Assembly: GCA_964575955.1 (NCBI GenBank)
Contig: CAZNTG010000006.1
Coordinates: 64,001-128,000 of the forward strand
From: an uncultured Thermoproteaceae archaeon
GTDB lineage: Archaea; Thermoproteota; Thermoprotei; Thermoproteales; Thermocladiaceae
Direction: 5' to 3'
DNA: 64,000 nt
Part shown: piece by piece, positions 1 through 24,075 of the stretch
Numbering within the stretch: position 1 is the stretch's first letter
How the letters are laid out: every line of letters starts with the position of its first letter
Notes under the pieces: generated by a model
Database searches by the model: none
What the model was told of the DNA's origin: nothing
Seen by the model: the letters and a program-made list of their open reading frames with translations, nothing else
Translations under genes and position numbers: made by a program

Positions 1-700
1 CGAGGAGTAGTTTAGATATAGCTAAACTAGCCTTATCTTGAGGATATATTAAACCATCTCTATACTCTTTCAATTTAGTAACATTAACATCACTATGAAT
101 AACTATTAAATCATCAAAGTCTGGATCAACACTACAAGAAATACCTTTCTCGTTGAGTCTTCTAACAACTTCGTAAACACTTACTAGATGTGTACATACT
201 CTAACATACTTAACAGGTTTTTCCATTAAAAACTTCAACAAATCTTCTATACTATCCTCAACATACATCATAAATCTCTCAATAATCCATCTGGGTGTTG
301 AATATTTTACACTTAATTTCTCAATAAAATCTTTACCATGTAGTAATTCGTTGATATCAAAATTCTTAGATAGTAAAGCTATATCTCTTATACATAGTTT
401 AAATTTTCTTAAGAATCTATACAACTTATCTACACTGTAATTTCTATACAATATCTCATAAACTAAGACTCGTAGAAGATTTTTTCTATAATTATCCAAT
501 CTTTCAAGTTTTATATTCAAAAATTCTCTACATATTGCATCTATAGTTAAATATCTCTTTGCAATATTTATTGAGAGAGCTTTAATTATAGGTCTAATAT
601 TTTCATATTTTATAAGTTTATATATTGAGTCTCTTATAGTTGTCTTCTTCTCAATACAGTATGTGAGTACTTTTGCTGTTAATTCTTCTATCGATAACAT
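1..700 (-). CDS. RsmB/NOP (NOL1/NOP2/Sun) RNA m5C methyltransferase, 5' part; runs off the window edge
   Basis: Manual translation from ATG at 700 (MLSIEELTAKV...): LSVKYSTPRWII, YVRV and KEYRDGLIYPQDKASLA are typical RsmB/Fmu motifs. Not in the ORF track because it has no stop in the window. Confidence 0.85.
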   Translation of the reverse strand, partial: MLSIEELTAKVLTYCIEKKTTIRDSIYKLIKYENIRPIIKALSINIAKRYLTIDAICREFLNIKLERLDNYRKNLLRVLVYEILYRNYSVDKLYRFLRKFKLCIRDIALLSKNFDINELLHGKDFIEKLSVKYSTPRWIIERFMMYVEDSIEDLLKFLMEKPVKYVRVCTHLVSVYEVVRRLNEKGISCSVDPDFDDLIVIHSDVNVTKLKEYRDGLIYPQDKASLAISKLLL

Positions 701-1998
701 TCTAATGTCACACTACTTCTCAAAGATAAACTTTCAATTATATACTTATGTATTTTCTCAGCTAATTCTTCCTGTTCTCTCCAATATCCTTCAAGTCTCT
801 TCAACTTCTCTATCTCTCTAAGTGTTTCTAAATATTTTGGATGTATCTTTCCTGGCTTCTCATTTTCAAATGGTGTTCCGGGTAGTGGCATAAATGTATG
901 TCCACGAATTATACATCCCTTCTTTGCAAATTCAAGCATTACTTTTGAAGTTATTTCAACATCTTCTTCAGTTTCTCCAGGTAGTCCAAATATGAAGTCT
1001 AGACATGGTGTATATCCATATTCTAGACATAGATCAACAGCCTCGTATACACATTCAATATTGTGACCTCTACCTATGTAATTTAGTAGTCTATTACTAC
1101 CTGTCTGTACTCCAATCGAGATCTTCTTATTATCTACATATTTTGAAACTACTTCAAGAACATCTCTATTAATAAAGTCTGGTCTTACCTCACTTGGAAA
1201 TGTTCCTAATACAAGTTTTGATTTACCTTCAACAGCTTCATAAGATGTTTTTAACATATTTTCAAGTGCTTTAATATTTGGTCTCTTACAATCTTTAGAA
1301 CCATATGCAAATCCATTTGGTGCTAAGTATCTTATAGTTTTAATACCAATCTTATAGTAATGTCTACACCATCTATATATTTCGTCAAGACTTCTATACC
1401 TAACCTTAAACATGTATATTCTAGGTGTTTGACAATACTTACATGCATGTTTACAACCTCTCATAATTTCAAGTGGTGCATATATTCTGAACCTGTCAAC
1501 ATATGGGCATGATGTATAGATCTTATCAGGAATGTAGTCTAGAGTCTTTATAATCTTCTCACCATCTCTATAAACTATATTTGGAACATCTCTCAAATCT
1601 TCATAACTGACTAGAGCATCTAGAAGTCTAGGTATTGTAATCTCACCTTCTCTAAGAACAGCAATATCAAAACCAAGTCTCAATAATGTACCTACAGGAT
1701 CACCAGATGCATGAGGACCACCAGCAATAAGTACTAAGTCGTGAGTTTTTCTAAGATCTCTAAGCATTTTCAATTCTTCAATAATCTCAACATCAAATAT
1801 TTGAGGTGTCATAAGTGAATACATCACAACTATGATATCTGAATCACATTTTAGAACTTCATTAACAACATCTCTAGCTAGGATTATATTCTTAACAAAT
1901 CTTCTAGATATTGAATAATTTTCAAGTATTGATAGTACATAAGCTAGAGAAAATCTACTAAGATCAGAATACTTAACTATTATAGTAACACTCTTCAC
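688..1998 (-). CDS. B12-binding-domain radical SAM protein (TIGR04013-like)
   Basis: IAGGPHASGDP and EGE in the N-terminal domain; RGCKHACKYCQTP (CxxxCxxC); DFIFGLPGET. Confidence 0.85.
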   Translation of the reverse strand: MKSVTIIVKYSDLSRFSLAYVLSILENYSISRRFVKNIILARDVVNEVLKCDSDIIVVMYSLMTPQIFDVEIIEELKMLRDLRKTHDLVLIAGGPHASGDPVGTLLRLGFDIAVLREGEITIPRLLDALVSYEDLRDVPNIVYRDGEKIIKTLDYIPDKIYTSCPYVDRFRIYAPLEIMRGCKHACKYCQTPRIYMFKVRYRSLDEIYRWCRHYYKIGIKTIRYLAPNGFAYGSKDCKRPNIKALENMLKTSYEAVEGKSKLVLGTFPSEVRPDFINRDVLEVVSKYVDNKKISIGVQTGSNRLLNYIGRGHNIECVYEAVDLCLEYGYTPCLDFIFGLPGETEEDVEITSKVMLEFAKKGCIIRGHTFMPLPGTPFENEKPGKIHPKYLETLREIEKLKRLEGYWREQEELAEKIHKYIIESLSLRSSVTLECYR

Positions 1999-2053: not shown

Positions 2054-3901
2054 GTGACAAGTCTAACAATGAATATAGTAGATGTCGATAGTGGAAAGAT
2101 TGAAAAACTTCAAATAGATTTTAAAGATATTAGAAAGTTAATACACCCAACATTAATAATGTATAAGATATCTAAAGATCTAAATCTTAAGAATATACTA
2201 GCAATACTTCAACATCCATCAAAGCTATTTAAAATTCCTGGAACAACATCAATATACTTAATAGATATTGAAAATGATAAGATTAGCTGTGTTAGAGCAC
2301 TTGTAGGAAATATAGATTTTAAACATAAGTTCTTTGGAATATTATTCAAAGATAGGAAGCCTTCAACAATAACTATAGAAGATGATAAAATTCTATTTAA
2401 TGAACCTAAAGATAAAGATCAATATGCTAAGATAGTTGTAGATAAGGATAGATTAACTACAGACATATTTTCAATAAAGCACAATCTAAATATTGACAAA
2501 TTCGAAATATATGTTAAGAAGAGTATTAACGATTCTACAGATGTAGATATTGATAGAGAGTTTATTAGAAAAATAGAAATTCTATATAAATACTCACCAA
2601 TCATCGGTGAAGACTCTCCGGTCAGAAGACATGGTCTAAAAGCAATTATTAATAAGTTAGTTGGTTTAGAACTTAGAGAAGATGTTAAGACTAATATTGA
2701 AAATGTTAGAAGTGATTTAAGATTTTGCTGTAATTACTGTGATGTGTCTTGTCTTAATTCTATATATAACTATAATATTTTTTATTATGACTATATGTAT
2801 AGTATTATTCAAGATTTTGTATATGATAACGATCTTTTAAGTAGATTGAAGTCTAGTTGTGACGATCTTTTCTACATAGTACAGATGTTGTATATGTGTA
2901 GATTTAACTATCCTGAAAAGCTTGAGAAAGGTTTTGAGAAACCTAGTTCTAATCTATACTACTCTATAAGTATGCTTGGTCTATGTCCATTATGTATGTT
3001 ACTCTTCTCTAAGTCTAGAGATTTCAATATTGATATACCTATACAAATTTTGAAATATCTATACAAAATTGATGTTAAGTTAGACGATTTTATTAAGATT
3101 ATTGAAAAGTTCAGGCCAACATTTAGATTTTCTATAATGTTGAAGAATGTTGAAGATATTTTGAAGATTATGTATCAATTTAATGATGTTGATAAACCTG
3201 TCAATTATATTCATCCTAACTCTATTCTTAGAGATAGGAAAGTTCAGGTTGCTATTGATGTAGTTGATGTCCCTGAGCGTATTATTGATATTGCTTTTAC
3301 ATGTATATCTTCTGGAATTGATATTGTTGAAGTAGGTACACCATTATTGAAGTATTATGGAGTTAAGATTGTGGAGTTGTTGAGATCTAACCTTCCTGAG
3401 GGTACTATAATATTTGCAGATACAAAAACTATGGATGTTGGTGATCTAGAGGCAAGAATTATGTATATACATGGTGCTGATATGGTATCTACAATGGCTA
3501 TTGGAACATTATCTAAAATTAAGGAGGCAATATTTGAAGCTGCAAAATTTGACAAGATTCTACTTATAGATTTAATGCAGTGTGAAAATCCTATAAGAAA
3601 GATAGAGGAAATGAGAGAAATTCTCGAAAAAGCATATCCGTGGATAATCATATGTGTTCATAGAGGAATAACAGAGCAGATAAGAGGAATGGGTATTGAG
3701 TCAGATATAGATCTTATCAGAAAGATTAGAGAGATCTTACCTAAAGAGATACCACTAGCAGTTGCTGGAGGAATAAAGTTGGGAATAGCTAAGAAAGTTG
3801 TAGATGCAGGAGCAAATATTGTTATAGTAGGTGCAGCAATATACACATCTAGAGATATTGGAGAAACAGCTAGAAAGATTGTGAAAGAAGTTAAGTCTTA
3901 A
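2054..3901 (+). CDS. hps: 3-hexulose-6-phosphate synthase (C-terminal ~220 aa) fused to a ~395-aa degenerate AOR-like domain
   Basis: From nt 3242: VQVAIDV, IVEVGTPLLKYYG, FADTKTMDVGDLEA, AVAGGI, IVGAAI match the HPS/KGPDC family. The N-terminal part has C-x2-C-x3-C and LGLC. Confidence 0.8.
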   Translation: MTSLTMNIVDVDSGKIEKLQIDFKDIRKLIHPTLIMYKISKDLNLKNILAILQHPSKLFKIPGTTSIYLIDIENDKISCVRALVGNIDFKHKFFGILFKDRKPSTITIEDDKILFNEPKDKDQYAKIVVDKDRLTTDIFSIKHNLNIDKFEIYVKKSINDSTDVDIDREFIRKIEILYKYSPIIGEDSPVRRHGLKAIINKLVGLELREDVKTNIENVRSDLRFCCNYCDVSCLNSIYNYNIFYYDYMYSIIQDFVYDNDLLSRLKSSCDDLFYIVQMLYMCRFNYPEKLEKGFEKPSSNLYYSISMLGLCPLCMLLFSKSRDFNIDIPIQILKYLYKIDVKLDDFIKIIEKFRPTFRFSIMLKNVEDILKIMYQFNDVDKPVNYIHPNSILRDRKVQVAIDVVDVPERIIDIAFTCISSGIDIVEVGTPLLKYYGVKIVELLRSNLPEGTIIFADTKTMDVGDLEARIMYIHGADMVSTMAIGTLSKIKEAIFEAAKFDKILLIDLMQCENPIRKIEEMREILEKAYPWIIICVHRGITEQIRGMGIESDIDLIRKIREILPKEIPLAVAGGIKLGIAKKVVDAGANIVIVGAAIYTSRDIGETARKIVKEVKS

Positions 3902-23277: not shown

Positions 23278-24075
23278 ATGACATTGATAGAACATTTACG
23301 AACTATATCAGAGAAAGCTAGAATGTATCTACTACTAATAGCACTATACAATCCAGGAGTACATCTAGGATCTTCATTATCAGTAATTGAAATATTGACA
23401 GCACTATACGGTACAGGTAGAGTAAGCTTTCTTAAAGGTGATATTGATAGAAATTGGCTAATATTAAGTAAAGGTCATGCTGTACATGCAGTATATGCAA
23501 TAGCTGCAGCTATGGGATACCTATCATGGAATGACCTTAGAAATTCAGGTACAATAATGAGTCCACTACAAAATCATCCAGAACTTGGATGTCCAGGTGT
23601 TGATGTAGCAACAGGATCGCTAGGTCAAGGTGTTAGTATTAGTGTAGGTATTGCACTAGGATTAAAACTTAGAGGATTAACAAATAGGAAAGTATACGTA
23701 ATACTTGGAGATGGTGAACTTGATGAAGGTCAGACATGGGAAGCATTTTCAACAGCAGCACACTACAACTTGACAAATTGGATACCAATAATAGACCACA
23801 ATAAGATACAGCTAGATGGTAAGGTTGATAATGTTAAGAAGAAGGGTGATCTAAGGAAGAGATTTGAATCTCTTGGATATGATGTTGTTGAAGTTGATGG
23901 TCATGATATAAATGCAATACTTGGAGTTTTAGAAGATGTTGAATCTAGTAATAGGATGAGTGTAATTATAGCACATACAGTACGTGGTAAGGGTGTACCT
24001 GTACTTGAAGGAACTAATAGACAGAGAATGTTTAGAGAAGAGATTTTACAAATACTTAAAGAATATATGCAGTAG
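23278..24075 (+). CDS. Transketolase, N-terminal (TPP-binding) subunit
   Basis: HLGSSLS, LSKGHA, TGSLGQG, GDGELDEGQTWEA. Confidence 0.93.
   Translation: MTLIEHLRTISEKARMYLLLIALYNPGVHLGSSLSVIEILTALYGTGRVSFLKGDIDRNWLILSKGHAVHAVYAIAAAMGYLSWNDLRNSGTIMSPLQNHPELGCPGVDVATGSLGQGVSISVGIALGLKLRGLTNRKVYVILGDGELDEGQTWEAFSTAAHYNLTNWIPIIDHNKIQLDGKVDNVKKKGDLRKRFESLGYDVVEVDGHDINAILGVLEDVESSNRMSVIIAHTVRGKGVPVLEGTNRQRMFREEILQILKEYMQ

Follow-up and report, generated by a model that had tools for sequence, protein, structure and literature searches.

A hexulose-6-phosphate synthase of a Thermoproteaceae archaeon carries a putative aldehyde:ferredoxin oxidoreductase remnant that lacks the tungstopterin motifs

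The reverse ribulose-monophosphate (RuMP) route of archaea releases one molecule of toxic formaldehyde for every pentose that is made. To our knowledge, the disposal of this formaldehyde is understood for a few lineages only, through a fusion of Fae with hexulose-6-phosphate synthase (HPS) in methanogens and through a stand-alone formaldehyde:ferredoxin oxidoreductase (FOR). Here we describe a gene at positions 2054..3901 of a 64,000-nucleotide stretch of DNA (the window; positions 64,001 to 128,000 of contig CAZNTG010000006.1) from an uncultured Thermoproteaceae archaeon, in which an HPS domain follows a candidate remnant of an aldehyde:ferredoxin oxidoreductase (AOR). Our overall explanation, to which we assign a probability of roughly 0.6, is that the genome's sole HPS carries an AOR-derived pseudoenzyme domain of about 390 residues. 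The open reading frame (ORF) and its two parts are as follows (aa, amino acids; AF2, AlphaFold2).

2054..3901, forward strand: ORF of the fusion of the putative AOR remnant with HPS, uninterrupted, 615 aa plus stop
2054..3226, forward strand: probable degenerate AOR remnant without tungstopterin motifs, aa 1–391 (AF2 fold match, colinear hhalign alignment)
3239..3898, forward strand: HPS domain (Pfam, NCBIfam, PDB sequence and structure matches)

The closest described fusions, Fae-HPS of methanogens (NF009833) and HPS-PHI of Thermococcales (NF041755; 9LJ9), also combine HPS with a second module linked to the pathway or to formaldehyde. The window protein matches both models with 126–138 bits over its HPS part only (positions 175–380 of NF009833), and with Fae not found and PHI encoded separately, identity with either of them is ruled out. 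Unlike in those fusions, the partner of HPS is here an N-terminal oxidoreductase relic and neither Fae nor PHI. The relic has its fold in common with tungsten AORs, including P. furiosus AOR (1AOR), FOR (1B25), WOR5 (6X1O) and BamB (4Z3W), and it has the CxxCxxxC motif and the remote cysteine of these enzymes in the same order; it differs from them in its length (391 aa as against about 605 aa) and in being fused to HPS, and is 9–14% identical to them.

That the fusion exists as a single gene is virtually certain. A first-pass annotation of the window, made from its letters only, had described one uninterrupted ORF with an HPS domain from aa 397, and both Pfam (aa 396–609) and NCBIfam (aa 397–611) place the domain there. 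The strings quoted in that annotation are all present: IVDVDSGKIE (aa 8–17), QYAKIVVD (aa 123–130), C226-x2-C229-x3-C233, MLGLC311 and YKIDVKLDDFIKI (aa 337–349). The start codon is a GTG that matches the Met start of the homologues in the alignment, and if translation began instead at an in-frame ATG five codons further on, the protein would have 610 aa.

The N-terminal 395 aa were searched against six other genomes of the same genus and against 34 genomes representing other genera of that family and order. Open frames of the same architecture, 612–643 aa in length and without an internal stop, were found at five loci in four of the six congeneric genomes; a fifth genome held only a fragment broken at a contig end, and neither the sixth (88% complete) nor any of the 34 genomes of other genera had a match to the N-terminal 395 aa. 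A profile search with the full-length alignment gave full-length matches at five loci in metagenome-assembled genomes (MAGs) of Thermoproteota, Thermoproteales or Thermoproteaceae. Three relatives were found among 5.8 billion clusters and three among 1.84 billion representatives, and because every one of them is 602–610 aa long, all are fused. In the profile search of the 1.84 billion representatives, neither a stand-alone form of the N-terminal domain nor a bridge to AOR was found. The domain junction (2945–3287) is spanned with no differences by a contig of a second, independent study, in a run that leaves about 2344–2935 of the gene without contig cover; a further run, with cover over all of the stretch, could be where this DNA came from and was not counted as independent. 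A lost stop codon or a misassembly is ruled out by the conserved open frames in relatives together with the independent junction contig. The annotation had allowed for two genes joined by error, and the relatives and this contig agree instead on one.

Artefact can also be considered more broadly, as two misjoined genes or as an AOR fold that was matched by chance. Similarity to AOR is not significant by sequence profiles alone, as such an account would have it. Nevertheless, the frame is open in 10 distinct sequences, in which the fusion is conserved down to an overall identity of 34%, the junction lies within an independent contig, the AOR matches stand 6–7 Z units above every other fold and the HPS domains nearest to this one are joined to AORs that are intact (both described below), and we consider the probability of an artefact or unrelated domain to be negligible.

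One genome of the genus, G001, contains two diverged copies of the short fusion (L002:1495-3318 and L007:3-1823; pN 0.29 in the N-terminal part and 0.12 in HPS); because this genome is 69% complete with 3% contamination, paralogues and mixed strains are indistinguishable here.

An AF2 model of aa 1–391, built on seven sequences (predicted local distance difference test score (pLDDT) 69.9; predicted template-modelling score (pTM) 0.75), contains the three-domain AOR fold, reduced by about 195 residues. The first of these domains is recognizable in shortened form.

2054..2527, forward strand: beta-rich part, aa 1–158, corresponding to a shortened AOR domain 1 (AFOR_N) from which GGRG and GRxGxGAxxGSK have been lost (model secondary structure, motif counts)

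When this model was compared with the PDB using Foldseek, the nine best matches were all members of the AOR family (E 1.9e-6 to 1.0e-4), including the AORs of C. autoethanogenum, P. furiosus and A. aromaticum, FOR, a bifurcating AOR, BamB and WOR5, and the tenth match had an E-value of 0.018. VIA-align, run against 48,161 chains, gave 6x1o (Z 12.3, root-mean-square deviation (rmsd) 4.4 Å, 257 residues aligned), 9mqx (Z 12.1, 4.8 Å, 293 aligned), 4z3w (Z 12.0, 5.2 Å, 335 aligned) and 1b25 (Z 11.5, 5.1 Å, 299 aligned), as against Z 5.4 for the best non-AOR fold. Model residues from 1 to 367–375 pair with residues from 1 to 537–638 of the AOR-family chains. The likeness to AOR that the first-pass annotation had proposed was thus recovered at the level of structure.

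Searching with the HPS domain showed that the closest HPS of a sister-genus genome, G008 (44–47% identity), lies within an open frame of 831 aa. Here the HPS is attached to an intact AOR: the fusion ORF of 829 aa matches AFOR_N with 272 bits, AFOR_C with 300 bits and OMPdecase with 97 bits. By comparison, the best match of stand-alone size (121–385 aa) to the window HPS domain is 42% identical, as against 44% for the HPS domain of the G008 fusion.

L027:2751-5240 of G008 contig C13, reverse strand: intact AOR-HPS fusion of 829 aa (Pfam)

A database search with the linker plus HPS of the G008 protein returned 53 proteins, 46 of which carry AFOR_N, AFOR_C and OMPdecase (696–835 aa); of the others, one is a fragment that retains AFOR_C and OMPdecase, and six are of the short type, about 608–617 aa long and matching OMPdecase only. 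The sources of the full fusions include Bathyarchaeia and Hadarchaeota MAGs, where the proteins are labelled 'HUMPS family protein' or 'aldehyde:ferredoxin oxidoreductase'. The full fusion (about 800–835 aa; G008 and 45 database clusters) has the same domain order as the window protein, with AOR at the N-terminus and HPS at the C-terminus; its AOR scaffold is colinear with the window remnant, and four Cys ligands are common to both. The two differ in that the window protein is without about 195 residues and without all of the tungstopterin and catalytic motifs that were checked, and Pfam sees only PF00215 in the window protein and in 6/6 listed short forms.

Trees of the HPS domain placed the two kinds of fusion together. 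In a tree of 63 rows, 11 short forms and 44 full forms were separated from the remaining rows by a branch with SH-aLRT support of 99, and they remained together (SH-aLRT 100) in a tree of 86 rows that included the 23 best HPSs of stand-alone size; support in the 63- and 86-row trees was 91 and 95 for the short-form group and 99 and 98 for the group of 44 full forms. Because the HPS domains of the 44 full forms and of the 11 short forms fall in one clade, the window protein can be read as descended from an AOR-HPS fusion and as shortened by the loss of about 195 residues, and the analysis supports its description as a pseudoenzyme derivative of such a fusion. Combining the fold, the phylogeny and the colinear motifs, we consider it very probable that the N-terminal part descends from AOR.

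The search of the full-text literature, in which subscription journals and supplementary files were outside the scope, found no description of an AOR-HPS fusion or of a degenerate AOR fused to HPS. Passages of six articles (PMC11291895, PMC3189178, PMC6946796, PMC10547907, PMC8065059, PMC4725937) mention HPS-PHI, Fae-HPS and separate AORs and no AOR-HPS fusion. The full-length AOR-HPS fusion is apparently undescribed. The 46 full-length fusion clusters suggest a third solution to the formaldehyde problem, in which formaldehyde would be oxidized to formate on the spot, and the window protein would be the outcome when this on-the-spot oxidation was abandoned, with the tungsten site gone and the shell and Fe-S cysteines held under selection. 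It would then offer a clean natural case of the passage from enzyme to pseudoenzyme domain within a fusion, for which a sister genus would still supply an active form resembling the ancestor. The question of why fused domains persist after their catalysis has been lost could be tested in this system; the comparison also identifies proteins that are annotated merely as 'HUMPS family' or 'hypothetical'.

Two other kinds of HPS fusion were encountered. G008 encodes on its contig C1 an HPS-RraA-like fusion (NF005442; L028:2936-4318, forward strand; Pfam OMPdecase 132 bits plus RraA-like 152 bits), so that this genome holds two different HPS fusions. It is another HPS fusion within the same archaeal family, and it is unlike the window protein in having a C-terminal partner, a member of the RraA/aldolase family, and an HPS that lies outside the AOR-HPS clade. 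Two proteins, P0056 (811 aa) and P0057 (813 aa), are fusions of AFOR_N, AFOR_C and HPS that fall outside the main clade, beside the HPS-RraA type; their placement suggests that AOR may have become joined to HPS on more than one occasion. The 829-aa fusion of G008 adjoins ORFs of 244 aa (2020-2754) and 439 aa (310-1629), which by eye only resemble a serine recombinase and TnpB and hint at a mobile element alongside.

Profile alignment of the 11 short forms with the AOR part of the 46 full fusions (hhalign) gave a single colinear alignment, pairing query positions 3–388 with template positions 5–572 over 373 columns (E 0.0029, probability 10.6%), and a second comparison aligned 69 columns around the fourth cysteine (E 0.0013). 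Compared with the genome's own three AORs, only the Cys motif was aligned (probability 7.7%). The alignment to the full fusions pairs the N-terminal strand, the CxxCxxxC motif with that of AOR, LGLC311 with DSxxxC of AOR, and the helix that follows, in agreement with the equivalences drawn in the first-pass annotation; one of them failed, however, since QYAKIVVD, which had been equated with 'FAAI.ND' of AOR, is placed elsewhere. The estimate that the domain is about 200 aa shorter than AOR was close, the difference from the AOR part of the full fusion being 195–198 residues. Gaps in the alignment face 195 AOR residues, among them the stretches that bear the lost tungstopterin and catalytic motifs. 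The two cysteine elements are as follows.

2729..2752, forward strand: C226-N-Y-C229-D-V-S-C233, counterpart of the AOR CxxCxxxC [4Fe-4S] ligands (hhalign)
2972..2989, forward strand: M307-L-G-L-C311-P, counterpart of AOR DSxxxC (fourth ligand), with the Asp not kept (hhalign)

Motifs were counted by pattern in both sets, of 11 short forms and 46 full forms. Across the full forms the AOR signatures hardly vary, and the short forms have lost all of them except the cysteines.

GGRG: short forms 0/11, full forms 45/46
GRxGxGAxxGSK: short forms 0/11, full forms 40/46
E[YF]E: short forms 1/11, at a non-homologous place, full forms 46/46
CxxxG[LIM]D: short forms 0/11, full forms 46/46
PAY[DNH]P: short forms 0/11, full forms 46/46
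RGGxH: short forms 0/11, full forms 45/46
DSxxxC: short forms 0/11, full forms 46/46
CxxCxxxC: short forms 10/11, full forms 46/46

The fourth cysteine lies within [LI]CP in 11/11 short forms. We take GRxGxGAxxGSK, EYE, DxxGLD, PAYDP, RGGxH and the Asp of DSxxxC to have the roles in tungsto-bispterin binding and catalysis that are given in the AOR literature. Without GRxGxGAxxGSK, EYE, DxxGLD, PAYDP and RGGxH, the remnant would not hold a tungsto-bispterin as AOR does, and the loss of tungstopterin chemistry is accordingly rated as highly likely. The missing Gly-rich pterin motif had already been pointed out in the annotation and is confirmed by its absence from every short form; the broader proposal made there, of an AOR-derived module that keeps its Fe-S ligands without the pterin motifs, is upheld by the motif counts and by the intact 829-aa fusion of the sister genus.

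Cysteines 288, 291, 295 and 494 of 1AOR, which we take to be the ligands of its [4Fe-4S] cluster, have their counterparts in C226, C229, C233 and C311. These are conserved in 10/11, 11/11, 11/11 and 11/11 short forms, respectively, with C311 and P312 invariant, and on this pattern we predict with modest confidence that the remnant has retained an Fe-S cluster. Purifying selection acts on the remnant, as shown by the ratio of non-synonymous to synonymous substitution rates (dN/dS), which among the three most closely related pairs is 0.15–0.18 for the N-terminal part and 0.09–0.15 for HPS. At the amino-acid level the N-terminal part has diverged at about twice the rate of HPS, with identities of 24–43% versus 53–72%.

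A cluster that persists after the cofactor motifs have all gone could serve as a switch, the [4Fe-4S] centre sensing redox state, oxygen or the charge of ferredoxin and tuning the formaldehyde-releasing HPS across the domain interface, so that formaldehyde would be produced only while its removal is possible. The conservation of the four ligands (10–11 of 11), the purifying selection on the remnant, the confident and rigid full-length model (pTM 0.91) and the presence of invariant polar residues beyond the Cys motifs would all fit such a role. On the other hand, the first ligand is replaced by Ser in one member, and the neighbouring genes include no linked partner or regulator; Fe-S clusters are, moreover, often kept for structure alone. 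We regard a redox or oxygen switch as quite unlikely.

Other invariant motifs are particular to the remnant, among them YSPIxGxDGPV, GLEL, CLN, LYMxRFxYPE and SKSRxFxLDIP. Two of them stand out in regions that have no counterpart in AOR.

2591-2671 of the window: YSPIxGxDGPVxRxG...GLEL (about aa 180–206), invariant in short forms, no AOR counterpart
2888..2917, forward strand: L279-Y-M-C-R-F-N-Y-P-E288 (LYMxRFxYPE), invariant in short forms, no AOR counterpart, opposite a gapped AOR region

Within LYMxRFxYPE the invariant columns are L279, Y280, M281, R283, Y286, P287 and E288. The motifs specific to the short forms may lie where the domain meets the HPS barrel, or they may make up a new site. 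If the latter, LYMxRFxYPE, D258, D271, E206 and N235 might have given rise to a new ligand-binding or catalytic site, for example one that binds or traps formaldehyde or a sugar phosphate, or one for protein docking. Such neofunctionalization would explain why the new motifs are invariant in 10/10 short forms with no AOR counterpart and would agree with a dN/dS well below 1, but the domain resembles no other family or fold, diverges about twice as fast as HPS and has no candidate ligand; we rate it as very unlikely. Taken jointly, the idea that the remnant is a new Fe-S regulatory or ligand-binding module that gates the release of formaldehyde in pentose synthesis, whether as a redox- or formaldehyde-responsive switch or through a new active site at LYMxRFxYPE/D258/D271, appears unlikely.

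The preferred explanation, an AOR-derived pseudoenzyme domain on the only HPS, has to be set against a number of observations that weigh against it. At the level of sequence, aa 1–395 have no match in NCBIfam, no notable match in Pfam even at E <= 10 and none to AFOR; the profile of the N-terminal alignment found no PDB sequence at E <= 10; and the hhalign probabilities to AOR alignments are only 8–18%. At the level of structure, aa 159–257, which include the CxxCxxxC motif, have pLDDT < 50 in the model of aa 1–391. A full-length AF2 model built on 10 sequences is confident throughout, including aa 180–260 (pLDDT 90.7, pTM 0.91), but Foldseek finds 1aor_A with it only at rank 50 (E 2.3e-7, 555 columns, TMq 0.38), and all matches listed by VIA-align, in wide and second-look modes, are TIM barrels of OMPDC type. 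Because these barrels dominate the full-length search, the AOR Z-scores come exclusively from the weaker model of aa 1–391. As to phylogeny, the HPS trees were quick searches without bootstraps, and the short forms branch as the sister group of the full forms and not from within them, for which reason the direction of change, loss and not gain, depends on the AOR fold and on parsimony. The dN/dS values are rough, since dS is 1.4–2.1 and near saturation. The invariant polar residues E206, N235, D258, D271, R283, Y286 and E288 suggest that the remnant is more than a passive scaffold. In one short form the first Cys is Ser, a Cys4 pattern cannot separate Zn from Fe-S by sequence, and the best NCBIfam match of the HPS domain, TIGR03128 RuMP_HxlA (aa 397–611), scores 141.5 bits and thus falls below its equivalog cut-off of 200.

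The Ser replacement and the ambiguity of the Cys4 pattern lead to a further possibility, in which the N-terminal part would be a zinc-ribbon-like relic that serves structure alone and takes no part in redox chemistry, its four cysteines binding Zn or nothing. Changes among the residues of the cluster pocket, such as that of the Asp of DSxxxC, point in the same direction. However, C-x2-C-x3-C plus a remote Cys is exactly the spacing of the AOR cluster and aligns with the AOR motif, and the organism makes Fe-S and tungsto-enzymes, as its three intact AORs indicate, which makes a Zn relic decidedly unlikely. Weak matches of aa 1–395 to Vps4_C and to a zinc finger were below the cut-offs and were taken as chance, and a search of the ESM Atlas gave no usable match.

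The C-terminal domain is readily assigned. Pfam OMPdecase/HUMPS (PF00215) matches aa 396–609 with 91.9 bits (7.3e-26) against a cut-off of 27, and the PDB sequence matches 9LJ9 (8.7e-32) and 3AJX (1.4e-24) come ahead of KGPDC and OMPDC. The best structural match among HPSs, 9lj9_A, superimposes with Z 27.9 and an rmsd of 1.7 Å over 202 residues at 38% identity, followed by 3f4w (Z 26.8) and 3ajx (Z 25.5).

3416..3436, forward strand: A455-D-T-K-T-M-D461, D-x-K-x-x-D signature of the OMP decarboxylase suprafamily, invariant in 10/10 short forms

This segment aligns with adlKTMDtG and admKTMDaG of solved HPSs, and the motifs QVAxD, EVGTP, ADxKTMDxGxLE, HxGIxEQ and AVAGG are invariant in 10/10 short forms. 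We take the residues of the D-x-K-x-x-D signature and of the other invariant motifs to be catalytic, and on our best reading the HPS domain is active.

The fusion gene is the only HPS gene found in the genome. PHI (TIGR03127) is encoded on another contig (176.8 bits versus a cut-off of 160), and neither Fae (PF08714) nor a match to the transaldolase family was found in this genome, which is 94.7% complete. In our proposal, the HPS barrel and the separate PHI would run the RuMP route in reverse, from fructose-6-phosphate to hexulose-6-phosphate and on to ribulose-5-phosphate and formaldehyde. The remnant would no longer oxidize this formaldehyde; having no cofactor site it would be unable to do so, and such oxidation is unlikely. 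It would probably still bind an Fe-S cluster, and it may have been kept since the HPS of this clade evolved in close contact with it, serving as a partner in folding, stability or oligomer formation. The confident full-length model (pLDDT 90.7, against 69.9 for the N-terminal part modelled by itself) suggests that both parts pack as one body, and a role as structural partner only is given a little short of even odds. Formaldehyde would then be removed in trans, for example by a stand-alone FOR-type enzyme of the same genome.

The genome has three intact genes of the AOR family, one of AOR type (677 bits to 1AOR), one of FOR type (620 bits to 1B25) and one that is divergent. Their presence means that the cofactor site was not lost for want of the tungstoenzyme machinery, and rules out that the organism had stopped making tungstoenzymes. 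The divergent gene (contig C3:122484-123578, L010; 596 aa, 244 bits to 1AOR) has, by eye, several changes in its Gly-rich motif and a shortened C-terminus.

Around the fusion gene, the upstream B12-binding/radical-SAM gene and a downstream PhoH-like gene are kept in synteny at the loci of the same genus. Two further features of the window may be listed.

688-1998, reverse strand: B12-binding/radical-SAM gene, 436 aa, divergent upstream neighbour, conserved in all six loci examined
23362-24018, forward strand: Transketolase_N match in an open frame of 267 aa, possibly half of a split transketolase (family match)

No functional link to the fusion was evident among its neighbours, which comprise an RsmB-like fragment, the B12/radical-SAM gene, the PhoH-like gene, an APH-like kinase and a Lyase_1-family enzyme. 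The last of these, of the fumarate-lyase type, looks by eye like an argininosuccinate lyase.

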